From assembly GCA_039815185.1 (NCBI GenBank), contig JBCBZT010000011.1:64001-128000 (forward strand): DNA of 64,000 nucleotides, read 5' to 3'. Below are positions 11,845 through 24,027 of the stretch, one piece after another. The notes under the pieces were generated by a model. That model searched no databases, was not told the DNA's origin, and worked only from the letters and a program-made list of their open reading frames with translations. A program made the translations under genes and the position numbers. Each line of letters begins with the position of its first letter. Position 1 is the first letter of the stretch. This stretch comes from Cyanobacteria bacterium P01_A01_bin.123. GTDB taxonomy: Bacteria; Cyanobacteriota; Cyanobacteriia; Phormidesmidales; Phormidesmidaceae.

Positions 11845-11889
11845 AGTAGACTCCGCATAGTGCTCCCTGCTCCATTACTTGCCTCACCC

Positions 11890-12786
11890 ATGACCTATCA
11901 ATCTCTCCAGCTCGCCGACAGCCAAATTCAGCAGTTTCAAGCCGACGGCTTTTTGATCTTAGAAAACTTCATCGAGATGGATTTAGTCGAGCGAGTGCGC
12001 GATCGCATCGAGCCGTTATTCCACGGCAAGTTTGAAACGGGCATCTATCCCGATGAATGGTACTGGCGACCGGGGTTGAGCCTGCCCGATGTCACCCGTG
12101 AAATCTGCAATGCTTGGAAATGCGATCACACCATTGCCAGCGTCTCCCTCTCTGCCACAGTCGGTCGTCTCAGTGCCCAACTCGCAGGTTGGCCCGGAGC
12201 CCGCATTGGTCAAGATAGCCTGTGGTATAAGCCCCCCGGTGGCGGCAAAGAGATTGCCCTGCATCAAGACGGGGCATATATCGACTATCTCGCACCCGCC
12301 GAAATGATTACCTGCTGGATTGCCCTGGATGACGTCAACCTCGACATCGGTACCCTGCAATACGTCCGTGGATCGCACCGCTGGCCTTTACTGTCTTCTC
12401 TAGAGGGTGAATTCCACGCCCCCACCAAAGACTACCGCTGGGCCATGCTAGAAACCGCTAGAGCAGCAGGCGTTAATGAACCTGAGATCGTCCCCGTCAC
12501 CATTCCCGCTGGGGGCTGTGCCTTCCACCACGGCCTCACCTGGCATGGTTCCGGCAAAAACCTCAGCCAAAGCCACCCCCGACGCAGCCTCGGCATCCAC
12601 ACCATCAGCTCCGAAGCCCACTTCAGCGAGCACCCCGCAGGCTACATTTACGGACGCTACAAACATGTCAACGACAATGTGATGGATGAATCCTTTTTCC
12701 CCATTTTGTGGACTGAGGGTGGTCATCGTTCGTCACACTTGGCGGATTACTGTAAGGACGCGATCGCGCCGTTAGCGTTGGTTTAG
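11890..12786 (+). CDS. Phytanoyl-CoA dioxygenase (PhyH) family Fe(II)/2-oxoglutarate oxygenase
   Basis: LHQDG (HxD), CWIALDD, GSH, HGLTWHGSG, RR motifs. Confidence 0.9.
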   Translation: MTYQSLQLADSQIQQFQADGFLILENFIEMDLVERVRDRIEPLFHGKFETGIYPDEWYWRPGLSLPDVTREICNAWKCDHTIASVSLSATVGRLSAQLAGWPGARIGQDSLWYKPPGGGKEIALHQDGAYIDYLAPAEMITCWIALDDVNLDIGTLQYVRGSHRWPLLSSLEGEFHAPTKDYRWAMLETARAAGVNEPEIVPVTIPAGGCAFHHGLTWHGSGKNLSQSHPRRSLGIHTISSEAHFSEHPAGYIYGRYKHVNDNVMDESFFPILWTEGGHRSSHLADYCKDAIAPLALV

Positions 12787-12968
12787 GGAGCAGGGGCAAG
12801 GGGCGCGAGGGAAGCAAGGGGAGCAAGGGAGCAAGGGAGCAACGCAACTCTGCTGCATCTTAAACTCACCTAGAACTCTTCATAAATCTTGCTCCCCCTG
12901 CTCCTCCGCTCCCCCTACCTCTCCATCTCCCCCCCTCCGCTCCCTTGCCCCCTATCTATCCATCTCCC
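12786..12968. repeat. GGGAGCAA-type short tandem repeats with downstream complementary C-rich tract
   Basis: GGGAGCAAGGGAGCAAGGGAGCAA followed by TTGCTCCCCCTGCTCC. Confidence 0.55.
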
Positions 12969-12969
12969 A

Positions 12970-13695
12970 ATGCCTCCCCTGATCGGCATCACCACCTACG
13001 GACGCAATGCCCATAATCAATTTCACCTCTATGCCAACTACGTTGAAGCAGTACGCCTCGCGGGAGGTGTCCCAGTCCTGCTGCCCCCTAGTGAAGCCCA
13101 ACTAGAGGTCTTGCTAAAACGACTCGACGGCATCATTTTCACCGGGGGAGGGGATGTGTCTCCTGACTGCTTCGGTGGGGACAGCCATCCGATGATCTAC
13201 AGTTTGGATTTAGAGCGCGATCGCTTTGAGTTGCAATTCGCTAAACTTGCCCTCAATGCAAACGTGCCAATTTTGGGCATTTGCCGGGGGCTACAGGTGC
13301 TCAACTTAGCCAGTGATGGCGATAAACTGATTCCCCACGTTCCAGATGTCTTCACAACCCTGGGCCACCGCATCGAACCCTCTAATGTAGAAACGCGGGC
13401 TCAGCCGACAAACCACTGGGTACAGGTAAATCCTGAAAGCCACCTAGCCCAAATCGTTGAAGCAGAGCGTATTCCCGTTGTCTCTTGGCATCACCAGGCG
13501 ATCAAAACTGCACCACCGGGCTGGCAAGCCGTAGCCCATGCGTCGGATGGTTTGATTGAGGCGATTGAGCACCCCTATCACCCCTGGCTCCTTGCAGTTC
13601 AGTGGCATCCTGAAATGTCCATTGATGATGGGTATCAGTTGAAGATTTTTCAGGCTTTTGTCGCTGCTGCGAACGGTAATCGGCAAATGACGTAG
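12970..13695 (+). CDS. Gamma-glutamyl-amide hydrolase (peptidase C26, PuuD-like)
   Basis: GGGDV, PILGICRGLQ, SWHHQAI, VQWHPE class I glutamine amidotransferase motifs. Confidence 0.92.
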   Translation: MPPLIGITTYGRNAHNQFHLYANYVEAVRLAGGVPVLLPPSEAQLEVLLKRLDGIIFTGGGDVSPDCFGGDSHPMIYSLDLERDRFELQFAKLALNANVPILGICRGLQVLNLASDGDKLIPHVPDVFTTLGHRIEPSNVETRAQPTNHWVQVNPESHLAQIVEAERIPVVSWHHQAIKTAPPGWQAVAHASDGLIEAIEHPYHPWLLAVQWHPEMSIDDGYQLKIFQAFVAAANGNRQMT

Positions 13696-13769: not shown

Positions 13770-15830
13770 TCAGACCCTATCGGCGAAGTGATCCAGTAGC
13801 TCTCGGTGCAGAAAGCGATAGCTGCCGCCAACCCGCTGCAATAGGCGACGCTCTACACAGTAGTTGAGGAACTGGGCTAAGTTCCAGGGAGCGATGCCCT
13901 GCTGCCAGAGTACCCAGCGCAGGCAAACGTGCTGAGCGCAGGCCAAGCCGCCGCCAGATAAAAAACCAAAGAGCAGCGCACCAAAAATGCCGGGGAGGAT
14001 GAAGCTGGGAAAGATTTGCCAAAGCGTACTTAAAATCGCTTGTCCACTCTCTCCCTCAGCAACACCTTGGGCAACAGTTGAAGGAAGTTCGCCAAGACTT
14101 GCAAGAATGATGCCAAAGGGATAACTGAGGACTGTTGTCCATAGACAGCTTTTCAGAGAATTCCAGATGCCTTGATTGGGGTGTGATCGCACTTGTAAAT
14201 CTTGCTTCAGCCCTCCAATCAGCCCGAAAATCAGTCCTACAATCAGCCCTACAATCAGCCCTCCAATCAGCCCTCCAATCAGCCCTCCAATCAACCCTCT
14301 AATCAGCCCTCTAATCAGCCCTACAATCAGCCCTACAATCAGCCAACCTTTCAAACTGTCTAAAATTTCTCGTCGCACCTCGTATGACATCGAAATTTTG
14401 AACGTCTCAACAGAGGCGATATCATCCAGCCATCCAATCAGCCATCCAATCAGCCCTACGATCAGCCCTCCAATCAGCCCTACGATCAGCCCTCCAACCA
14501 GCCCTAAAATCAACCCTAAAATCAGCCCTAAAATCAGCCCTAAAATCAGCCCTAAAATCAGCCGATATTGCCGTCTAGCTTGCTTTGCCTCTAGCCAGCT
14601 TGGCTGTATCTGTTCAATCAGCAGTTCCACCCGGTTGGCTTGCTGCAACTGTCGCGCAATCCAGGCTAGGGGCTGCTGAGTGCGTCGCCGATTAGGTTCC
14701 TGTGCCAGGGTTGGGTAAGCCCAGCCTTTTTTCGATAAATCTTCCCGACGATTGCTTTCCCGCACTTCGTGCGACAACTGCCAGTCAATATACTGGCGGA
14801 TCAACTCTGTTTTATTTTCAAAGGGCGCTTTCGGGTCGTAAGTCCGCGCTGCCAGCGCCACGAACAGCGGTACCCGCAGCAGCCCCGGATCCCCCTCTGC
14901 GGTTGGCTCCAACAGCTTTCCGAGCCGAGGATTGGTGGCAATCGCCGCCCACAGCGGCGACTGCCGCGCCGCCAAAAAGATTTGGATCTGCTCATCGGTC
15001 AACAGCTCTAAGCGGATTGCCCCGTTCAGCGTGTTCAGCTTAATGCCCGCCTGAGTAAATTCCTTGGTTCGGCAACACACCACCAGATGGGGATACTGCC
15101 CCGCAAATTCCTTCAGTTTTTGAGTGCATTTTTGCTGCCGTTCCATTCCCAGCTCATCCAGGCCGTCCATCAGCGGCAGCAGCGCCTGCTGATCCAGCCA
15201 TCGTTCATACAGCTTGGCTTTGCGATTGCCCCCGTGCTGCTCATACAGTTGCTCAATCAGCCAATCGCGAATGCTTTGATTATCTTTCCGCCAAGTCGAG
15301 AGTTCAAACACCACCGGAATCACCGTTTGCGGCTGAGCCAGGGCACCGCACATCAGTTGCTCCGCTAACCCCAGCAGCGCCGTCGTTTTCCCCGCACCGG
15401 GGGTCCCCAGAATCAGCAGCTTCCGGGCGATGTCCTCCCGCCCAAAGGTTTCAATCAAAAGCTGACGCGGATCGAGGGTGTCCTCTGGCTTCCCCTCAAT
15501 CTGCAACACTCGCTCCGCTTCCAACGGCGACCGCCCCACCCAACTCAGCTGCTCCCGAAAGTTGACGGACATCAGTGCCTTATCCCGACCCAACGTATCC
15601 ATCAGCCGTTTACGAATCTCAGGCAGTTGCTTTTCCTTCAGCAGCCGCATTGCCCAGTGCCAGTCCACCCCTGATGATGCAGACTGCCCGAACTGCACAA
15701 GAGCCTTATTGATCGTGACCTGATTATCGTGGCTATTTTCAAAGCTAACGGCATCTCCCCCGGCCTGGGTGAGCTGAACCTGGCTATTCTGAATTTGGCT
15801 ACCTTCGATGTTTTGGTCTTGCCCTGCCAT
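13770..15830 (-). CDS. NACHT (STAND) NTPase with C-terminal GLIxGL transmembrane repeats
   Basis: Walker A GTPGAGKTT, Walker B LMDGLDE, VCCR, PLF motif, LLQRVGGSYRFLHRELLDHFA tail. Confidence 0.92.
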   Translation of the reverse strand: MAGQDQNIEGSQIQNSQVQLTQAGGDAVSFENSHDNQVTINKALVQFGQSASSGVDWHWAMRLLKEKQLPEIRKRLMDTLGRDKALMSVNFREQLSWVGRSPLEAERVLQIEGKPEDTLDPRQLLIETFGREDIARKLLILGTPGAGKTTALLGLAEQLMCGALAQPQTVIPVVFELSTWRKDNQSIRDWLIEQLYEQHGGNRKAKLYERWLDQQALLPLMDGLDELGMERQQKCTQKLKEFAGQYPHLVVCCRTKEFTQAGIKLNTLNGAIRLELLTDEQIQIFLAARQSPLWAAIATNPRLGKLLEPTAEGDPGLLRVPLFVALAARTYDPKAPFENKTELIRQYIDWQLSHEVRESNRREDLSKKGWAYPTLAQEPNRRRTQQPLAWIARQLQQANRVELLIEQIQPSWLEAKQARRQYRLILGLILGLILGLILGLILGLVGGLIVGLIGGLIVGLIGWLIGWLDDIASVETFKISMSYEVRREILDSLKGWLIVGLIVGLIRGLIRGLIGGLIGGLIGGLIVGLIVGLIFGLIGGLKQDLQVRSHPNQGIWNSLKSCLWTTVLSYPFGIILASLGELPSTVAQGVAEGESGQAILSTLWQIFPSFILPGIFGALLFGFLSGGGLACAQHVCLRWVLWQQGIAPWNLAQFLNYCVERRLLQRVGGSYRFLHRELLDHFADRV
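14218..14562 (-). repeat. Two 12-bp tandem arrays encoding (GLIx)n membrane helices of the NACHT protein
   Basis: ATCAGCCCT(ACA/CCA/AAA) units at about 14218-14345 and 14437-14562. Confidence 0.85.
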
Positions 15831-15884
15831 TATTGCCGCTTATCCTGCCTGCTTTCTCTGGTGCCCTTGCCCCTTACCGTTGAG

Positions 15885-16367
15885 CTACAGCCCAAAGAAC
15901 GTAACCGCTACCCCAATCCACGGCGCAACCGCCTTAAACACCTCCGTCCCCGTTTGCCAAAGGCTCTTACCCGCTTCAGTGCTGTCCTTCAGCGTTTTCA
16001 GCGTTTCGCTAACCTGCTTCAGGTTTTGTCCCACCAGTTCCTTATTGGGGGTTTCCTTTCCCGCCGCTCGCTTCGCCGGACGCAGATAATCCAGCAGTTC
16101 CTCCTGCATCGCTGGGGTGAGGGCAGTGCCTTTCACAGCCGCTTCCAATTGTTCAATCAAGCCAACCACCTCTGCGCCGGTTAGCCCCTGCTGCTGAGCT
16201 TGCAGATCTCCAGTTTGGTTCTGCTCAAGGTCCCGCCCCGCTTGGCCCATTTGCACCATGCCCCCGGTTAGCGTGACGTTGCTGAGGCTTTGGGACTGAT
16301 CGGGCTTACCTGATTTCGGAGACTTCTTCCAAAACATTTTTTGCGAGCCGCTAGTTTGTCCCATCAT
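15885..16367 (-). CDS. Small helical protein with N-terminal Q/G-rich motif, upstream partner of the NACHT gene (start may be 16337)
   Basis: 160-aa ORF co-oriented 54 bp upstream of the NACHT gene; amphipathic helices and hydrophobic C-terminus. Confidence 0.75.
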   Translation of the reverse strand: MMGQTSGSQKMFWKKSPKSGKPDQSQSLSNVTLTGGMVQMGQAGRDLEQNQTGDLQAQQQGLTGAEVVGLIEQLEAAVKGTALTPAMQEELLDYLRPAKRAAGKETPNKELVGQNLKQVSETLKTLKDSTEAGKSLWQTGTEVFKAVAPWIGVAVTFFGL

Positions 16368-16479
16368 ATTCGCTTTTTAAGAGCGTCCATTAGACAAACT
16401 GCGATCTTCAATAATCTTGTGCTTGAAGGTCATTTGTGGCGATCGCAACGGCAAACAATCTCCAGCCCCCAAACCATAG

Positions 16480-16705
16480 CCGATAAAATCGTCCTCATCC
16501 CCGAATCAGAAGAGGATATCGACCCAGGTGACGATCCCACAGAAACTGTAATTGAGGGTATTCGTGAAGGCTGGCAGCAAGCTCTTACCGCCGAAGTGTA
16601 ACCTGTTTCAAAACTTTGGGACAGAATGGAGTCGAATGATTCACCAATTCAAGTTGGCTTCACGAAACGCTTTGAGAGGGCGTTTGAAAAGCGCGATCGC
16701 TGAGA
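16480..16705 (+). pseudogene. Degraded type II antitoxin C-terminus plus toxin (RelE/HigB-like) N-terminus
   Basis: DDPTETVIEGIREGWQQALTAEV*PVSKLWD with in-frame TAA at 16599-16601, then IQVGFTKRFER truncated at a HIP1 site. Confidence 0.5.
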
Positions 16706-16924: not shown

Positions 16925-17509
16925 ATGGCCTTAATTACAGCCAAGCGCTTCAGCGTAGAAGAGTACCATCGCTTAACAGAGCTGGGCTTTTTTCAGAGTG
17001 ATGAGCGGCTTGAGTTGATACACGGGGAAATTATCCAGATGGCAGCCAAAGGTGTTGCCCATGAAGTGTTTTTGACACGCTTGCTGAGAGAGCTGCCCAA
17101 ATGTTTGGCAGAAACGGTTACCCTCCGTTGCCAATCCCCCATCACCTTGTCACCAGACAGCGAACCCGAGCCAGACTTTGCGATTGTCCGCAATCGAGAC
17201 GATGATTACTTTGAGGGGCACCCTCAGCCAGCCAATATCCTATGGCTAATCGAGGTATCTGACTCATCACTCGCTTATGATCAGTCGGTCAAGCTGGCGA
17301 TGTATGCTGCCCACGGCATTACACACTATTGGATTTTCAACTTACTGGATAGCGTTCTAGAGTGCTACAGCGACCCCTATCAAAATCAGCAAGGGACTTG
17401 GGCCTATCGGATGAAGCGAATTTATCTGCCGACAGAAACAGTTATGATTCCCCAGCTGGATACTCAATCATTGCTGGCGCTGGGTAAGGTATTTCCACCA
17501 AATCAATAA
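16925..17509 (+). CDS. Uma2 family endonuclease-fold protein
   Basis: LELIHGEI, EPEPDFAIV, IEVSDSS, YWIFNL. Confidence 0.92.
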   Translation: MALITAKRFSVEEYHRLTELGFFQSDERLELIHGEIIQMAAKGVAHEVFLTRLLRELPKCLAETVTLRCQSPITLSPDSEPEPDFAIVRNRDDDYFEGHPQPANILWLIEVSDSSLAYDQSVKLAMYAAHGITHYWIFNLLDSVLECYSDPYQNQQGTWAYRMKRIYLPTETVMIPQLDTQSLLALGKVFPPNQ

Positions 17510-17517
17510 GCAGAATA

Positions 17518-18099
17518 TCAGCCCCTGCGTTTCAACCAATGAAAAATCATCTCAGCAGAAAGCTGTAAGTCAACATCTGGCAAACAGGGCAGTAAGCTAG
17601 CCCCGCTTAATAACGTTGGCAGACGATTGGGTTGATAGCAAAAAACCGATTTTTCTTGGGGGTCAAGCAACCAGCCTAATCGCGTTCCGTGCTCAAGACA
17701 GTGCAGAATATTGCCAGTGACTCGGGTTTGACTTTGATTCGGCGATAAAATCTCAATCACCCAGTCGGGCGCGAATTTAATGCCACCACTAGAAATCTCG
17801 CCATCCTCGTCAACTGGAATTTGATCACTCGCTGCGACGACAATATCGGGCACAATCGAGCGTCCCCCGAACGTACACCGTAGCTCTGGAAATGCTTCAT
17901 AAGCACTCTCTAAAGCGTCAATGGCTGCAACTAGTTTTTTCTGCAAGAGGCTGTGTTTACTGCCACCCATCGGTTTTTGGCTGATTTTGCTGTTGCCGTA
18001 TTCCCAAGCAGGCGATTCGTCAATATAAGGCAGTTGTAAGAATGCCTGGAGTGTCATGGATTGGGGAGGAGCAACCGTCATCTCAAGCCTCTCAATCAT
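17518..18099 (-). CDS. Uma2 family endonuclease-fold protein
   Basis: PELRCTFGGRSIVPDI, APDWVIEILSP, GWLLDP. Confidence 0.92.
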   Translation of the reverse strand: MIERLEMTVAPPQSMTLQAFLQLPYIDESPAWEYGNSKISQKPMGGSKHSLLQKKLVAAIDALESAYEAFPELRCTFGGRSIVPDIVVAASDQIPVDEDGEISSGGIKFAPDWVIEILSPNQSQTRVTGNILHCLEHGTRLGWLLDPQEKSVFCYQPNRLPTLLSGASLLPCLPDVDLQLSAEMIFHWLKRRG

Positions 18100-18109
18100 T
18101 ACCGTAAGA

Positions 18110-19510
18110 TTAACGCCTTTTCAGATGCCAACCGCGAGGTTGCGTAAATGTGCGAATGCCTTCTAAAGAAAGCGTTGCCCCCAACCCAGAATGTCCCCGC
18201 CCCGTCCACGGCAGCGGTGGACTCACCCGATCGCAGCAGTTCCAGTAGGCCGTACCGCTATTCACCTGGCCCAAAATTTTCAGGGCGCGATCGCGCTCAG
18301 CCCCATACACCGCAGCCGTCAACCCATAGGGCGTATCGTTCATTAACGCGATCGCTTCGGCATCACTGTCCACCTTTTGAATGCCGATCACCGGGCCAAA
18401 AGTTTCATCTCGCATCACCGCCATGTCATGATTGACACCCGTCAACACCGTGGGTGCAAAGTACCAACCTTTCCCATCGATGGGGTGACCGCCAGTCTGT
18501 AAAGTAGCGCCTTGGGCGATCGCATCTTTGACCTGTCGTGTTAGCTCGCTCAGATGGGGCTTGCGGCTGACCGGGCCGAGATAGGTCTTGGCATCGCTCG
18601 GGTTACCCATCACAAACCCATGAACCGTATCCAAAAACGCCTCTAAAAAAGCATCGTAGACATCAGCATGGACATAGATGCGCTCTACCGCACAGCAGCT
18701 TTGGCCGTTGTTATAAAAGGCCCCATCTGCCAGGGCAGCGGCCACAGCCGCGACATCGGGCACATCGTCACGCACATAGGCCGGATCTTTGCCGCCCAGT
18801 TCAAGCTGCACCTTGATCAGTTGGGCGGCAGCAGCAGCGGCAATCTTTTTGCCCGTGGCGTAAGACCCCGTGAAGCAGATCGCGTCTAAGGGTTGCTCCA
18901 GCAAGGCAGCACCTGTCAAACCACCCCCAATGACTGGGATGAAAACATCTTCGGGAACGCCTGCGGTGTGGAGCAACTCAGCGATCGCCAACCCGGTCAA
19001 TATCGAAAACTCGGACGGCTTGTACAAAACCGTATTCCCTGTCAGCAGCGCCGGAATAAACACGTTGGAACCCACAAAATAGGGGTAGTTCCAGGCAGAA
19101 ATGTTGGCAACTACCCCGAGTGGGTCATGGGTAATCACCTCTTCTAACGCCGCCATACCGGGGATGGTGACAGCATCCTGCTTAACGATCTCTGGGGCGA
19201 TTACCTGAGCCACATGATGGGTAAAAAAGTTGATCCGCTCTACCGTGGTGCCGATTTCAGCATTGGCCTGGGTGATGGGTTTGCCCGTTTCTGAAGTTAG
19301 GGTGGCGGCTAATGCAGTCTGTTGCTGCGTGAGTAAACCTTGAAACCGGGCGATCGCGTCAATTCGATCTGCCAATGGACGAGCTGTCCAAGTGGGTTGA
19401 GCCGCTCTAGCTGCCGTGACTTTGCGTTGCACAGCGGCGGCATCGTCTATGGGGACTTCTTTAACCAGCGCCTCAGTGGCTGGGTTGATGATCGAAAGGA
19501 CGTCACTCAT
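18110..19510 (-). CDS. NAD(P)-dependent aldehyde dehydrogenase
   Basis: WNYP, FTGS, LELGGKDP, GQSCC, ETFGPV. Confidence 0.95.
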   Translation of the reverse strand: MSDVLSIINPATEALVKEVPIDDAAAVQRKVTAARAAQPTWTARPLADRIDAIARFQGLLTQQQTALAATLTSETGKPITQANAEIGTTVERINFFTHHVAQVIAPEIVKQDAVTIPGMAALEEVITHDPLGVVANISAWNYPYFVGSNVFIPALLTGNTVLYKPSEFSILTGLAIAELLHTAGVPEDVFIPVIGGGLTGAALLEQPLDAICFTGSYATGKKIAAAAAAQLIKVQLELGGKDPAYVRDDVPDVAAVAAALADGAFYNNGQSCCAVERIYVHADVYDAFLEAFLDTVHGFVMGNPSDAKTYLGPVSRKPHLSELTRQVKDAIAQGATLQTGGHPIDGKGWYFAPTVLTGVNHDMAVMRDETFGPVIGIQKVDSDAEAIALMNDTPYGLTAAVYGAERDRALKILGQVNSGTAYWNCCDRVSPPLPWTGRGHSGLGATLSLEGIRTFTQPRGWHLKRR

Positions 19511-20706
19511 GCGGCAAAAGCATCTTCATAGATGGCATAAAAGTCGGCTTTAGACACGGGACGCGGATTCAGCGGGTGGCAACCATCCTGTAACGCCACG
19601 CCCACTAATCGATCCGCTACATCAGCAGGCACCCCTAACTCACTTAGGCTAGCGGGGATGCCAATGGCTTGACGCAGGGTGATGATCCAGTCGATAAAGG
19701 CCTCGCCTGAGGTTGCCCCTGGTGTCACGATCCGCGCCATGCGTAGAAATCTTTCGGGTTCCACGGGCAGGTTAAACCGCATCGCCGCTGGCAGCATCAT
19801 GGCGTTAGCCAATCCGTGGTGGGTGTCGCACACTGTCGAGAGGGCATGGGCACAAGAATGAGTGACGCCGAGCCCTTTTTGAAACGCGATCGCCCCCATC
19901 ATCGACGCATTCAACATGCCGCCCCGTGCGCTCAAATGGGCGTTAGCTTCTGCTGCGCTCAGCGTTTCCCCAGCTGCTAGTCTCTGGGCAAACATCACGC
20001 AATCTTTAAGATGCTCAGCCACTAGGTAGATGCCCTCTAAGGCAATCCCGTCGCAGATGGGGTGAAAGCCTTTGGCCAGAAATGCCTCAATCAGATGAGT
20101 CAGCGCATCCATACCAGTTGCAGCGGTAATTTTGGCGGGTAGCCCCAACAGCAATTCTGGATCGGCCAGCACGACTTTAGGCAGGAGTTGTGGGTCAAAA
20201 ACGATCTTTTTCGCGTGGGTCTGATCATCAGAAATCACCGCACTGCGACCCACTTCGCTACCCGTCCCTGCCGTAGTTGGAATCGCCACGATCGCTGGAA
20301 CGCTTTGATCCACCGGACGGGCATCGGGGCGACCGTCTTCGTATTCAAACAGGTGACCGGGGTGATTAGCCATCAGCGCGATCGCCTTAGCCACATCCAT
20401 CGGTGCCCCACCGCCAACCGCAACGATGCCGTCGGCCTGATGTTGCCGATAGGCGGCTAGCCCTGCGTTGACCTGAGAGACCACTGGGTTGCCCCAAACC
20501 CCGCTAAATGTGTTCACTTTCAAGCGGGATAGGGAATCTACCAGGGGATTAAACCAGGGGAGTTGAGACACGTCGCGATCGCTGACCAACAGCGGCCGCT
20601 GTATACCCAATTCAGTCACCGTGTCTAACAGCCTGCTCCGCACCCCTGCCCCAAAGTGAATCGTGGTGGGAAAGCCGTAGGTATGGACCAAACTAGCAGT
20701 TGACAT
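19507..20706 (-). CDS. Iron-containing alcohol dehydrogenase
   Basis: GGGAPMDVAK, PTTAGTGSE, MDALTHLIE, HSCAH, HHG; overlaps both neighbours. Confidence 0.95.
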   Translation of the reverse strand: MSTASLVHTYGFPTTIHFGAGVRSRLLDTVTELGIQRPLLVSDRDVSQLPWFNPLVDSLSRLKVNTFSGVWGNPVVSQVNAGLAAYRQHQADGIVAVGGGAPMDVAKAIALMANHPGHLFEYEDGRPDARPVDQSVPAIVAIPTTAGTGSEVGRSAVISDDQTHAKKIVFDPQLLPKVVLADPELLLGLPAKITAATGMDALTHLIEAFLAKGFHPICDGIALEGIYLVAEHLKDCVMFAQRLAAGETLSAAEANAHLSARGGMLNASMMGAIAFQKGLGVTHSCAHALSTVCDTHHGLANAMMLPAAMRFNLPVEPERFLRMARIVTPGATSGEAFIDWIITLRQAIGIPASLSELGVPADVADRLVGVALQDGCHPLNPRPVSKADFYAIYEDAFAA

Positions 20707-22018
20707 AATGATCCATCTCCCAGGGAGTTATTTGGGCACTGTACTGACGCCACTCTTCGGACTTAAATTCAAAAAACGTCTTCGTGGCAGCTTTGCCGAG
20801 GGATTCCATCAGCAGTTCATCCTGTTTCAGACACTCAATCGCTTCCAACAAGTTCGAGGGGAGCGTTTCTAAATGGGGAAACTCACTGCCTCGGGTAAAC
20901 AGGTTTTCATCAATGCGTGGCCCGGGCATCATCTGCTGCTCAATGCCATCGAGCCCAGCCACCAGCAGCCCAGCTAAGGCTAGATAAAGATTGGTCGAGC
21001 CATCGATTACACGGCACTCAAAGCGTCCTGCCTCTGGAATTCGCAACATATGCGTGCGATTGTTGCCCCCGTAGGAAATGTAGCGTGGGCTCCAGGTGCT
21101 GCCAGAGGTCGTCATCGTCGCTCCCAGCCGCCGATAGGAGTTAACCGTCGGGCTAAACAGGGCTAAAAGCCCCTTAGCATGGGCCAAAACCCCCGCTAAA
21201 AACTGGTAGCCCGCCGGAGATAGCCCGCCCTCATCAGCGCCTGCCTCAAAGGCATTCGTCTCCCCTTGCCAAAGGCTGTTGTGAACATGGGCACCGTTGC
21301 CAGTCAGGTGGCTAAAGGGTTTGGGCATAAACGTTGCCGTCAATCCCCGTTGCTCTGCCAGGGTCTTGACCATGTACTTAAAGAACACATGGCGATCGGC
21401 AGTCACCCTAGCATCGCTGTAGGTCCAGTTGATTTCAAATTGACCGTTGGCATCTTCGTGATCGCACTGGTAAGGTTCCCAGCCCAGATCTTCCATGTAG
21501 GTGACTAGCGTCGAGATAAAGTCATACTGCCGCATCAAATTGAGCTGGTCGTAGCAGGGGCGTTCCGCCGTATCTTTGCTATCTGCGATGGTGTAGCCCG
21601 TCTCAGTTGCCTTGAGCAAGAAAAACTCGGCCTCAACCCCAGCCTTGTAGCTGTACCCCATCTGAGTGCAGCGCGCCAACGCCCGATTGAGAATCATCCG
21701 GGGAGCCGCCTCAAAGGGTTCATCATCAAAGTACACATCGCTCGCCACCCAGCCCACCGTTGGCTGCCACGGCAGCACAATCAACGACTCAGGATCGGGA
21801 ACTGCCGCAATTTCAGCTGAATCTGGCCCTAAACCTAGGTTGGAGGCAAAGGACGCAAAAAAAGCGCCGTCTTTTTCAACCGAGGCAATCTTAGCTGCGG
21901 GTACCAGCTTGGCCCGTGTCCCCCCCAAAAGATCGGTGTAGGAAACCAGAAAAAACTTTAGCCCCAAGGCTTTCGCTTTTTCGGCAAGGGATGTCTGCTG
22001 CGGCAGGGTTCCGACCAT
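20693..22018 (-). CDS. Glutamine-synthetase-like gamma-glutamyl-amide ligase (GlnT/GmaS type)
   Basis: EAEFFL, DHEDANGQFEIN, TFMPKPF, GNGAHVH, NNRTHMLR, FECR; short N-terminus with RAKLVP. Confidence 0.88.
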   Translation of the reverse strand: MVGTLPQQTSLAEKAKALGLKFFLVSYTDLLGGTRAKLVPAAKIASVEKDGAFFASFASNLGLGPDSAEIAAVPDPESLIVLPWQPTVGWVASDVYFDDEPFEAAPRMILNRALARCTQMGYSYKAGVEAEFFLLKATETGYTIADSKDTAERPCYDQLNLMRQYDFISTLVTYMEDLGWEPYQCDHEDANGQFEINWTYSDARVTADRHVFFKYMVKTLAEQRGLTATFMPKPFSHLTGNGAHVHNSLWQGETNAFEAGADEGGLSPAGYQFLAGVLAHAKGLLALFSPTVNSYRRLGATMTTSGSTWSPRYISYGGNNRTHMLRIPEAGRFECRVIDGSTNLYLALAGLLVAGLDGIEQQMMPGPRIDENLFTRGSEFPHLETLPSNLLEAIECLKQDELLMESLGKAATKTFFEFKSEEWRQYSAQITPWEMDHYVNC

Positions 22019-22084
22019 GGTTGACGTCTCCAGTTTGAGTATTTCCTCAGGAGTTCATCTTTATGGGCGAAAACACAACGTTTT

Positions 22085-22098
22085 GTATATTCCAATAC
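22085..22098 (-). promoter_or_regulatory. NtcA box upstream of the GS-like operon
   Basis: TTTT-GTA-TATTCCAA-TAC-AAAA extended palindrome; -10-like TAAAGAT 21-22 nt downstream on the minus strand. Confidence 0.75.
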
Positions 22099-22293
22099 AA
22101 AAATTGCAAAATCTAATCGAAATCTTTTTAGCCAAGACATTTGAGAAACTGACTGCGATCGCACGATATCTCGGACAAAAAGTTGATATTTTTCGTAACT
22201 ATGAATTTGAGCATTTTCGGAGATGCAAAAGTACCTCATTTTTGTGTAATCCCAAAGGGAGAGGACTCAATTAAGAGACTTTTCTAGTGATTG

Positions 22294-22307
22294 GTAGCAG
22301 CTAATAC
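22294..22307 (+). promoter_or_regulatory. NtcA box upstream of amt
   Basis: GTA-GCAGCTAA-TAC; near-consensus CAGACT 22 nt downstream. Confidence 0.65.
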
Positions 22308-22641
22308 AATCTTTTGGTGTCAGAAAATGCAGACTCGTTAACAATTAATTCTCCTCAGCACCGAGACGCAGTCTATGTCTGAAGCTGCTTCATGTCTTTG
22401 CGTCCATCAATTTGTGTAAGCCCGATGTGTGACCAGCTTGTCGGCTAGTTTGCCAAATTTGCCAAAGAATCAGGGAGTCTATCTAAGAATTCCCCCTGCG
22501 TTTGATTGAGAAGATTGGCGTTACATCATTCGTGAGGTTAGAAGTATCTAAAACTCTGAGCAGAAGTTTATGTCAGAAAAATTAGCGGTTTGAAGCCTTG
22601 TTTTTGTTGTGGGGCTGTTTGTTAACTAGGAGGGGTTGAAT

Positions 22642-24027
22642 ATGGAGCCTGAAGCACAAGCGTTTCTAGGTACCTTTGTCACGGAGACCTACTATTATTG
22701 GGCCTCTGTGTTTATGTTGATTATTCACGTAGGCTTCTTGGCCTATGAGGGGGGAGCATCTCGCGCCAAAAATGTTTTGGCGACGATGGTTAAAAACCTA
22801 TTAACCCTTTCGGTGGTAGGGCTTTCATTTTACTTTTTTGGCTGGTGGGTCTATGCCGGCTTTTCGATATTCCCTCGATTTGGCGGAATTATCGGGCCTT
22901 GGACAACTGCCTTGCCTGAGAATCTCGGTACCCTCGACGGTGAGGGCCTGCTTGGCTTTGTCGCCACAACCTATCCCTGGTCTGCCGAGATGGGGCCAAA
23001 CATTGCTGACAACCTAACGGGTGTCTTCTGGTTTGCCTTTGCCCTGTTTGCCATGACGACCGCTTCGATTATGTCTGGGGCAGTCATTGAGCGGATTCGT
23101 CTCGGGGCTTACTTGATTTTGGCCGCGATTTTAGGCGGCTTCCTTTGGGTTGTGGCTGGTTCCTGGGGGTGGAACTACTGGGGTTGGTTCAACACCATGG
23201 GCTATCACGATTTCGGTTGTTCTGCCGTAGTTCACGGCGTTTCTGGATTCTTTGCCCTCGGGGTTCTGATCAATCTCGGCCCCCGGATTGGTAAGTTTGA
23301 TGCCCAAGGCAATCCCCGCGAAATCCTACCCCATAATCTACCGCTGACGATGGTCGGCCTAATGCTGATTTTCGTTGGATTCTATGCGTTTCTGGCGGCC
23401 TGTGTCATCTTTGGCCCTGGTGCCCTGGTGGAATCGACCATCTACGGTTCTCCCATGACACTGGCTTCGATTGGGGTGAATACGACTCTGGCACTTTGCG
23501 TTGGTATTATTGGGGCCTATCTGGGTTCCAAGGGCGATCCGTTTTTTACCATTTCAGGTGGACTAGCGGGGATTATCTCCGTGGGTGCGGGGCTTGATCT
23601 GTACGCACCGCCATTAGTGCTGCTGATTGCTTTTATCGGTGCTTACACCATGCCGTTTGTCGGTAAGTTCGTGGAAAAAATGGGCATCGACGATGCCGTT
23701 GGAGCCTTTGCCGTCCATGGCTATTGTGGTGTGATTGGGTCTATGGCAGTGGGTGTAATGGCCACGGGGTACACCGTAGGCAATTACCCACCAACGAACT
23801 TCATGGCCCAACTGGTGGGTACCTTCTTGTGCACCATAGTGTTGGGTCTAATTCCCGGCTATGGGTGTAGCTGGGTGCTGAAAAAGCTGAATCTACTGCG
23901 AGTCCCGCCTGAAGAGGAAATTGAAGGGCTTGACCTGGGTGACTTTGGACTTGAGGGCTATCCCGAATACACCCTCAAACTTGAAGAATCGGTGTCTGAA
24001 GGACATCTACATGTCTCAGTGAAGTAG
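22642..24027 (+). CDS. amt: Ammonium/methylammonium transporter (Amt family)
   Basis: SGAVIER, HDFGCSAVVH, GPRIGKF, IDDAVGAFAVHG (both pore His present); AGGAGG RBS. Confidence 0.93.
   Translation: MEPEAQAFLGTFVTETYYYWASVFMLIIHVGFLAYEGGASRAKNVLATMVKNLLTLSVVGLSFYFFGWWVYAGFSIFPRFGGIIGPWTTALPENLGTLDGEGLLGFVATTYPWSAEMGPNIADNLTGVFWFAFALFAMTTASIMSGAVIERIRLGAYLILAAILGGFLWVVAGSWGWNYWGWFNTMGYHDFGCSAVVHGVSGFFALGVLINLGPRIGKFDAQGNPREILPHNLPLTMVGLMLIFVGFYAFLAACVIFGPGALVESTIYGSPMTLASIGVNTTLALCVGIIGAYLGSKGDPFFTISGGLAGIISVGAGLDLYAPPLVLLIAFIGAYTMPFVGKFVEKMGIDDAVGAFAVHGYCGVIGSMAVGVMATGYTVGNYPPTNFMAQLVGTFLCTIVLGLIPGYGCSWVLKKLNLLRVPPEEEIEGLDLGDFGLEGYPEYTLKLEESVSEGHLHVSVK

Follow-up and report, generated by a model that had tools for sequence, protein, structure and literature searches.

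Two adjacent genes of a cyanobacterium, one encoding a NACHT protein with hydrophobic repeats (the sensor) and the other a small helical protein (the partner), carry similar short tags near their N-termini. Across related loci the two genes are found paired, their tags match and the tags change jointly from lineage to lineage. The window, i.e. the whole stretch of 64,000 nucleotides that was analysed, comes from Cyanobacteria bacterium P01_A01_bin.123. Co-inheritance and co-variation in the sequences support a two-gene module with a shared tag, as an earlier note on this DNA had proposed, in which the tag appears amyloid-like and the order is reversed with respect to Bell-BASS systems. The best reading, held with a little less than even confidence, is an inverted BASS-type amyloid-signalling pair whose partner would be templated through its tag and would then disrupt membranes.

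The gene pair and its products

Both reading frames and the two 23-residue segments were found on the minus strand where the earlier note had placed them, with 8 of 23 residues identical in an ungapped alignment. The NACHT gene starts 54 bp past the stop codon of the partner gene. The pair comprises the following features.

13770..15830, minus strand: NACHT-TM gene, 686 residues (PF05729, E 4.7e-9)
15753..15821, minus strand: sensor-side tag, residues 4-26, ending QAGGD (alignment)
15711..15752, minus strand: residues 27-40, a conserved stretch that prolongs the sensor tag and may form another beta segment
15129..15419, minus strand: core of the NACHT domain; Walker A (residues 142-149) is intact and a Walker B-like acidic motif occupies residues 222-226 (Pfam and alignment)
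14427..14563, minus strand: hydrophobic GL[IV]x repeats, encoded by a first array of 11.4 tandem copies of a 12-bp unit
14207..14344, minus strand: GL[IV]x repeats, encoded by a second array of 11.5 tandem copies of a 12-bp unit
13935..14024, minus strand: third hydrophobic segment, residues 603-632 (hydropathy)
13773..13934, minus strand: conserved soluble C-terminal segment beyond the hydrophobic block (alignment)
15885..16337, minus strand: partner gene, 150 residues, N-terminal tag and C-terminal four-helix domain (ORF; alternative start 16367)
16230..16298, minus strand: partner-side tag, residues 14-36, ending QAGRD (alignment and monomer model)
15894..16178, minus strand: predicted four-helix bundle and short terminal helix, residues 54-148 (AlphaFold2, pLDDT about 85-93)
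15888..15977, minus strand: C-terminal amphipathic helix with conserved W-x-G, a candidate membrane-binding element

The partner start had been set at 16367, but 16337 is the likelier position, being the start of most of 36 aligned rows, and the motif formerly numbered 24-46 therefore occupies residues 14-36. Q14, Q16, Q29, Q32 and A33 are invariant in these rows. The partner tag is rich in Q, G and S with alternating hydrophobic positions, and lies in a polar N-terminal part of low confidence in the AlphaFold2 monomer model, where it is likely disordered. At the other end of the chain, the hydrophobic last helix described previously is present, but it proved to be amphipathic and of moderate hydrophobicity (Kyte-Doolittle 19-residue maximum 1.45), weaker than a typical TM helix. 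W[LFIV][GAK] was observed close to the C-terminus in 89/95 partner homologues, among which the W-x-G helix always lies at or near the chain end, with a median hydrophobicity of 1.25; the hydrophobic moment of the helix is 0.29-0.47.

The partner family counts 306 cluster representatives at E<=0.001, and profile scans with the partner found no family in Pfam or NCBIfam. Foldseek returned no match to the helical domain at E<=0.001, while VIA-align gave generic bundles (best Z 11), HeLo, MLKL and Bab being absent from the best 50 matches listed. The best hit of the partner in a PDB sequence search was a designed helical protein (E 0.004). No link between the helical domain and HeLo, Bell or MLKL was detectable by profile, in a set that held no Bell profile; a single one of 24 homologue rows reached E 0.044 with the HeLo profile. 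An identity as TCAD2, DUF4404 or DUF5955 is not supported: it was suggested by embedding similarity only (0.82-0.90), with no Pfam match in the 24 rows. The TCAD2 profile matched 0/151 genomes, and the control was likewise without match.

In the sensor, the Walker A and Walker B-like columns are near-invariant over 26 aligned NACHT rows. Intact Walker motifs and multiple predicted TM regions are also features of the TM-sensor type of bacterial NACHT protein of Kibby et al., membrane topology being read here from hydropathy and alignment only. The first 12-bp array differs in length among relatives, and the tag extension is missing in L044 and takes another form in a second NACHT subtype. Whereas the protein had been thought to end in TM repeats, these are followed by a soluble, conserved stretch of some 50 residues, with many invariant columns from residue 637 to 682. 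The genes around the pair in the window are metabolic and form no defence island.

Tag matching across related loci

Taken alone, the 23-residue match is weak (BLASTP E 0.91; shuffle p 0.027 and 0.015). Equal or higher scores were reached by 119 of 2607 adjacent ORF pairs of this genome (4.6%), with many tandem paralogues among the best 40, and the tag score of this pair is among the weaker ones (39 vs a mean of 50 over related pairs). A tag profile built from other loci, leaving out the window and its 96%-identical relative, recovered both genes of the pair (E 2e-11 and 7e-8) and, out of the 12,081 reading frames in this genome, no third carrier better than E 8. The match is beyond chance at the family level and marginal for the single pair.

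A matching tag was found at the start of the adjoining gene in 76 of 95 loci, where it beat composition-keeping shuffles, and the median intergenic gap of these 76 pairs is 37 bp. The 95 loci were obtained from 120 homologues by removing 23 without a qualifying downstream ORF and 2 with fewer than 30 residues before the domain. Some of the 19 unmatched neighbours are frameshifted or mis-started NACHTs and some are unrelated genes. When one locus was drawn per clade, the true neighbour ranked first in 15.1/27, 9.8/14, 6.5/10 and 3.8/7 clades (median p <0.001, <0.001, <0.001 and 0.004, respectively). Loci fetched later were matched in 3/3 cases and added two tag types, one of these loci having its matched tag in a divergently transcribed NB-ARC-TPR gene. 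The motif sharing and co-variation that the earlier note had proposed to look for in neighbouring pairs are thus borne out, with at least five tag types on one helical domain, each matched by the neighbour. Single-site co-variation was not significant after tree correction (43/47 concordant, with only 3-5 independent pairs). Rows L054 and L078 were mis-anchored in that tree test; L028, L047, L056 and L063 were left out of the tag-pair comparison, in which L060 was mis-extracted.

Partner and NACHT protein show no similarity outside the tag. DNA identity across it is 31/69, the same codon being used for only 2 of the 8 shared residues, and over 45 pairs the DNA/codon comparison of tags gave 45% for cognate vs 40% for non-cognate tags. 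Recent gene conversion was also rejected.

A Walker A protein lies downstream of the partner in 41/45 loci, and two of the other four show a tagged start that the end of the contig truncates. Scanning of 33 neighbours identified 9 NACHT, 5 nSTAND1, 3 iSTAND, 3 FGS and 3 PDZ proteins, 1 MoxR-like AAA protein and 9 without family. A hydrophobic segment was present in 41 of 55 complete matched neighbours and absent from the other 14, including iSTAND and FGS proteins. The NACHTs with a tag do not form a single clade (AU p 7e-5; 21 tagged vs 6 other NACHTs of this genome), and the tag was shown to occupy an exchangeable N-terminal slot of the NACHT. Stand-alone partners, with no output domain besides the helical one, account for 84/95. 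In the 47 longer proteins, the module was found fused behind CHAT (9), TIR (4), pentapeptide (12), AbiTii (1) and TRADD-N (1) domains. Among the flanking genes listed for related loci, none recurs as a conserved third gene, and a metagenome scan with P0292 gave no match. About 60 small genomes yielded weak matches (E 1e-6 to 1e-10), mostly in ORFs of ~500 residues and lacking the C-terminal part of the profile; these were left out.

Character of the tag and likeness to known systems

The earlier note had called the tag RHIM-like, a label that does not suit this pair. The RHIM core, taken as (I/V)Q(I/V/L)G as in that note (G-phi-Q-phi-G in its published form), is missing from both window proteins (VQMG, VQLT); among the 76 matched pairs it was found in 17 partners and 6 sensors, on both sides in only 4. 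The Pfam RHIM model matched neither the window proteins nor 24 homologue rows. What the pair does have in common with RHIM, PP and BASS3 is a short Q/G beta-rich motif present in receptor and partner. Q[AS]Gx[DN] occurs on both sides of 36/76 matched pairs, and by its letters the QAG(R/G)D core seems closer to BASS1 than to RHIM. In the BASS data set, QAGRD is frequent, with 1146 places counted over repeated cross-validation files; the first 7 places all belong to cluster C01, which we infer from its size to be BASS1. GQAGRD, GQAGGD, QIGQA and VQGDNN had 0 occurrences there by word match, as distinct from profile. Q, G, S, N, D, V and I are abundant in the tag whereas K and P are scarce, and broadly the same composition bias is reported for BASS motifs (Dyrka et al., bioRxiv 10.1101/2020.01.06.895854). 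Fibrils are formed by BASS1 and BASS3 peptides. Class II relatives show a G-D-(G/N)-N-Q pattern which, by eye, is like cluster C03.

In Bell-BASS/NLR pairs (BASS1-10), the genes are likewise adjacent, mostly collinear and closely spaced; the upstream one encodes a small helical protein and the other a NACHT or NB-ARC protein with a matched tag of ~25 residues at its N-terminus. Occurrence in cyanobacteria, TIR and CHAT variants and the QAGRD core (C01) are also common to both. However, the motif of Bell-BASS lies at the effector C-terminus, whereas here it takes residues 14-36 of 150, ahead of a helical domain that is not recognisably Bell, remote or permuted homology being possible. The layout thus mirrors those of HET-S and Bell, with the tag first and the putative membrane helix last. 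Sensors differ as well, since TM-repeat NACHT, nSTAND1, iSTAND, FGS and PDZ proteins are included here. The published amyloid-signalling screens consulted sought the tag at effector C-termini and would therefore miss an inverted class; as the BASS screen took Bell protein C-termini as input (Dyrka et al., bioRxiv 10.1101/2020.01.06.895854), it could not find a tag-first layout. No description of a tag-first helical partner was found in the literature searched, and subscription journals or bioRxiv supplements (Dyrka Table S2/Fig. S5, Ibarlosa extended data, Payne tables) may hold related cases.

In the same way, Bab/Agp (BASS11) is a two-gene pair with a shared motif, a likeness drawn from its description and not from BASS11 sequence. 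Amyloid-triggered abortive infection was shown for this system, and its motif also occurs with TIR, CHAT, NACHT and NB-ARC (Ibarlosa et al., bioRxiv 10.1101/2024.11.07.622273). Kaur et al. (PMC7159879, PMC8195603) describe EAD adaptors at the N-terminus of iSTAND and nSTAND1 proteins. EAD-coupled conflict systems resemble this pair in that an element present in two copies links a STAND, iSTAND or FGS component with the product of another gene, but there the coupler is a folded EAD instead of a short low-complexity tag; EAD and TCAD2 profiles matched neither of the window's two proteins. Finally, the helical domain is similar to the C-terminal third of the PADLOC candidate PDC-M14B (profile positions 167-264 of 267, E 1e-7), whereas the N-terminal 165 residues of PDC-M14B are lacking in the window partner, and the window NACHT matched no PDC-M14 model. 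P0154 is a full PDC-M14B-like protein carrying the module (E 2e-49). PDC systems are predictions, and M14 is unnamed in the main text (Payne et al., bioRxiv 10.1101/2024.01.29.577857).

Proposed mechanism and alternative explanations

An activated NACHT sensor would cluster its tags into an amyloid seed, and this seed would template the tag of the partner. Templating would free the C-terminal amphipathic helix of the partner, which may then disrupt the membrane and so sacrifice the infected cell. Because matched tags change together across pairs, the sensor likely switches on the partner by amyloid templating. Physical coupling of the two proteins through their tags is very probable, and its being achieved by cross-beta templating is quite probable. 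Given amyloid coupling, the helical domain is fairly likely to be a membrane-damaging output and not an adaptor or cap. By analogy, the trigger may be a phage or a membrane insult.

The TIR and CHAT fusions suggest that the helical domain could be an adaptor or cap rather than a killer. The amyloid coupling would then be real and the domain would act as a scaffold (cf. Drosophila PGRP-LC/Imd) recruiting an effector encoded elsewhere, or as a tag cap, which we regard as rather unlikely. In its favour, the TIR, CHAT and AbiTii fusions join the module to an enzyme or to a known defence domain within one chain, the fusions among the 47 longer proteins fit an adaptor or a cap equally well, and the partner's terminal helix is only moderately hydrophobic; moreover, cRHIM/Imd amyloid signals without killing (PMC13506858). 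It is opposed by the 84/95 stand-alone partners without an evident conserved third gene, by the lack of a third tag carrier by profile in this genome and by the constant position of the W-x-G helix at or near the chain end. Less likely still, the two tags would bind each other in a small closed heterocomplex, either a beta-helix or a beta-hairpin, and would serve as a homotypic adaptor of the EAD kind without self-propagating amyloid. The tag does hold the N-terminal position of iSTAND and nSTAND1 where EADs were described (Kaur et al.), and an antifreeze beta-roll profile gives weak hits to class II tags (E 7e-4 to 3e-5), but a tag of about 23-35 residues, of low confidence in the monomer model, with core words and composition in common with fibril-forming BASS motifs, argues against closed docking.

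That the NACHT-TM protein is itself the pore-former, kept off by a partner that binds its tag as an inhibitor, is improbable. The three hydrophobic blocks of the sensor and the four-helix bacteriocin immunity proteins of the fold search, at a generic Z of 8 only, would agree with it; on the contrary, the helical domain also pairs with neighbours without hydrophobic segment (14/55) and with the NB-ARC-TPR protein. Low complexity could also produce the similarity by chance, or the partner could be the decayed remnant of a duplicated NACHT 5' end; a pairwise E of 0.9 and the 4.6% of adjacent ORF pairs scoring equally high could be invoked in favour. This explanation was refuted by the clade draws, the codon comparison, the leave-out profile and the later 3/3 loci, and is scarcely credible: the partner belongs to a conserved family, its similarity to the NACHT is confined to the tag with few shared codons, and shuffles were beaten in 76/95 pairs. 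The duplicate origin that the earlier note had named as fatal to its own proposal is thereby dismissed.

Under the preferred reading of an inverted amyloid-signalling pair, the iSTAND ternary and TM-NACHT systems of cyanobacteria become linked to a candidate output. Should the helix form pores, it would possibly represent a route to amyloid-triggered death that arose independently of HeLo, Bell and MLKL. More tentatively than the pair itself, the partners may constitute an undescribed family of membrane executioners that amyloid sets off, with a back-to-front order of parts and no apparent relation to HeLo, Bell and MLKL. Found in ~1/4 of sampled genomes in this cyanobacterial class, it could act as a plug-in death module with interchangeable tags and NACHT, NB-ARC, nSTAND1, iSTAND-MoxR-vWA ternary, FGS or PDZ sensors. 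Since the effector domain stays constant while nature supplies numerous cognate and non-cognate tag pairs, the family constitutes a test set for the specificity of amyloid signals.

The two genes and their surroundings

The pair is formed by two collinear reading frames, separated by 54 bp.

13770-15830, - strand: reading frame of the NACHT gene, 686 aa
15885-16367, - strand: longest reading frame of the partner

The 686-aa protein contains a PF05729 NACHT match (E 4.7e-9) with intact Walker motifs and three hydrophobic blocks, two of which are encoded by 12-bp tandem arrays. It had been described in an earlier note as ending in transmembrane repeats, but a conserved soluble tail was found after these blocks. 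The repeat blocks (within 13770-14600) differ strongly in length among relatives and possibly represent a diversifying sensor region. No family match was obtained for the partner in Pfam or NCBIfam. Its reading frame from 16367 does exist, but most homologues favour the methionine at 16337, which gives a protein of 150 aa. The 23-residue N-terminal motif common to the two proteins, hereafter the tag, was recovered in place on both sides, with 8 shared residues. In this single pair the match is weak (BLASTP E 0.91; shuffle p 0.015-0.027), and a genome-wide control gave scores as high for 119 of 2607 pairs of adjacent ORFs.

An 86-aa ORF without Pfam family (16341-16601, + strand) overlaps the region upstream of the partner in antisense. 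Two convergent Uma2 (PF05685) genes (16925-17509 and 17518-18099) lie just upstream of the pair, and several relatives are likewise flanked by Uma2-like genes. The cassette sits within a metabolic neighbourhood (11860-13695 and 18110-24024) of dioxygenase-like, glutamine amidotransferase-like, aldehyde and alcohol dehydrogenase-like and glutamine synthetase-like genes, as judged by eye from translations.

Conserved pairing and co-variation of the tags

For the partner, 222 close homologues were counted, along with 306 cluster representatives at E<=0.001. With a wider profile, 94 of 401 genomes in the cyanobacterial class gave matches; all relatives with a given taxon are cyanobacteria. A Walker A protein directly follows the partner in 41 of 45 loci, and two of the four others show a tagged start interrupted by the contig end. 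In 41 of 42 pairs, the tag was the site of the best local alignment. The mean score was 50.3 for cognate tags, those of the same locus, versus 44.1 for non-cognate ones (a difference reached in 0 of 20,000 permutations) and 21.8 for a helical-region control. A tag profile built from other loci picked these two genes, and no others, from the 12,081 reading frames of the source genome. Flanking genes vary among loci, which fits a mobile two-gene cassette, as we infer the pair to be.

A single-site co-variation test was not significant after tree correction (3-5 independent pairs), and the locus set was therefore enlarged to 120 distinct homologues, 95 with a testable downstream ORF and 23 without a qualifying neighbour. 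A tag match at shuffle p<=0.02 was observed in 76 of the 95 neighbours and was missing in 19, while Walker A was present in 70. One locus was then drawn per helical-domain clade (300 draws, 1000 permutations). At 50% identity, first rank went to the true neighbour in 9.8 of 14 clades (0/1000 permutations as high in any draw), and at 40% identity in 3.8 of 7 (median p 0.004, worst 0.043). Tag co-variation thus exceeds shared ancestry, and the earlier expectation that neighbouring genes share and co-vary the motif was borne out. Changes found in both genes include a three-residue shortening (L057, L059), an extra glycine (L132, L151, L153), a VQG(D/N)N repeat tag type (L112-L117, L145) and a GSAI type (L212-L216). 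Loci fetched after the tests matched in 3 of 3 cases and added two further tag types; at L221, the tag partner is a divergently transcribed NB-ARC-TPR gene. The residues that two tags share use the same codon in 45% of cases for cognate and 40% for non-cognate tags, and in 2/8 for the window pair; recent DNA copying therefore does not account for the match.

A second partner-family copy, 32% identical, is present in the source genome (G000) on contig C39 (1-901, - strand; L081). Its neighbour starts with a tag that matches in a variant form particular to this locus, with an extra glycine on both sides, and is truncated by the contig end; no Pfam family was found in the 150 aa available. Stops or frameshifts in the partner or NACHT gene at L008/L028, L021/L060, L049, L031 and L017 are either of the kind common for costly defence genes or assembly errors.

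Sensors, fusions and known systems

The tag goes with the helical domain and not with any single sensor. Among 33 neighbours scanned, 9 were NACHT, 5 nSTAND1, 3 iSTAND (with a MoxR-like AAA gene next), 3 FGS and 3 PDZ, and 9 had no family; two consecutive tagged genes occur at L016, L113 and L123. The cores of tagged NACHTs share 28-67% identity with that of the window and fail to group as a clade when set against six further NACHTs from the source genome (AU p 7e-5, quick tree), so that the tag occupies an exchangeable N-terminal slot. This exchange of sensors is unusually broad. The module, that is the tag plus the predicted four-helix domain, stands alone in 84 of 95 loci. Longer proteins can likewise end in it, and 47 of these were scanned: 12 pentapeptide, 9 CHAT, 4 TIR, one each of AbiTii, TRADD-N and a weak DUF553, 19 with no family, and none with NACHT.

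In L113 (G020:C5), L115 and L117, the module lies directly upstream of tagged iSTAND genes, with a tagged FGS gene in between in L113, followed by the MoxR-like AAA gene and a large third gene; a ternary conflict system thus appears to be coupled to the module. In Nostoc-type cyanobacteria, a near-identical module of class II (tag pattern G-D-(G/N)-N-Q) was seen behind unrelated pentapeptide-TM, AbiTii, TRADD-N and glycosyltransferase-fragment domains (proteins P0121-P0216, P0122, P0136, P0168, P0172). This arrangement points either to recent mobility of the cassette or to an internal start. Several further NACHT-TM paralogues, which differ in their N-termini, are encoded on source-genome contigs C18, C95 and C129 (two). 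Other proteins of this genome share another N-terminal segment, about 60 aa long, which ends in G-x-D-I-H-V-G-D and presumably resembles the EAD10 adaptor:

C76, near 250961, + strand: a pair
C35, 24942-27167: one protein
C35, 27799-28926: one protein

The pair may work like those of bacterial amyloid signalling motifs (BASS) and like Bab/Agp, another amyloid pair. It differs from Bell-BASS, in which the helical effector Bell has a C-terminal motif: the order is indeed reversed, with the partner's tag at the opposite end, and there is no hydrophobic helix at the N-terminus, so that the pair is not a member. The tag is not RHIM-like as had been supposed, the tetrad being found on both sides in 4 of 76 pairs and Q[AS]Gx[DN] in 36 of 76. 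In the portion of the BASS training file available (PMC8086366 supplement 1), QAGRD recurs in cluster C01, which we take from its size to be BASS1, and longer words of the window tag family are absent. The sources compared were the available parts of PMC9815663, PMC10907252, PMC7159879, PMC8195603, PMC12261475, PMC13506858, PMC8086366 and the Dyrka 2020, Ibarlosa 2024, Kibby 2022 and Payne 2024 preprints; the screens that they describe take the effector-side motif from C-termini. No description of a tag-first helical partner was found in the literature searched; closed supplements and subscription journals may hold one. The sequences give good support to a real variant of putative amyloid-type signalling linked to NLRs, in which the partner is inverted and belongs to no known family.

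The helical domain and a possible mechanism

AlphaFold2 predicted four helices and a short terminal helix in partner residues 54-148 (pLDDT about 85-93), residues 1-49 being of low confidence. The final helix of this domain, described earlier as hydrophobic, is amphipathic, and its hydrophobicity (median 1.25) lies below the threshold of 1.6 applied here to TM segments. Of 95 homologues, 89 have W-x-G in this helix. Structural comparison by Foldseek and VIA-align, and a profile search of the PDB, gave generic bundles only.

Pairing, tag matching, co-variation and sensor exchange are observed; beyond them, we propose that a triggered NACHT oligomer would gather its tags into a cross-beta seed, on which the tag of the partner would be templated. 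With the bundle next to that tag unlatched in this way, the terminal helix would be released and could damage the membrane. The whole chain is put forward tentatively, at somewhat under an even chance. Its amyloid step is argued from the composition of the tag (21% Q, 15% G, 12% S, 1% K, 0.2% P), its length, the shared QAGRD core and precedent. BASS favour Q, N, G, V and I and disfavour K, P and L, according to the available part of the Dyrka 2020 preprint. The same features make it unlikely that the tags dock without amyloid.

Killing, as proposed, is the weakest step; it is argued from mirror symmetry with Bell and HET-S and from the fact that stand-alone partners have no further output. TIR and CHAT fusions would equally suit a helical domain acting as adaptor or cap, a reading that we regard as possible if rather doubtful. 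A partner acting as inhibitor of its sensor is quite improbable, and an artefactual tag similarity, which the single-pair scores would allow and the clade test opposes, is hardly credible.

The helical domain also matches the C-terminal third of the PADLOC candidate PDC-M14B, a predicted system (Payne 2024 preprint). The PDC-M14B profile also matches a helical family of more remote kinship (L130, L133, L136, L138, L148), which has no tagged neighbour in the flanks examined; it carries another G/N-rich segment in front and is mostly C-terminal in long proteins.
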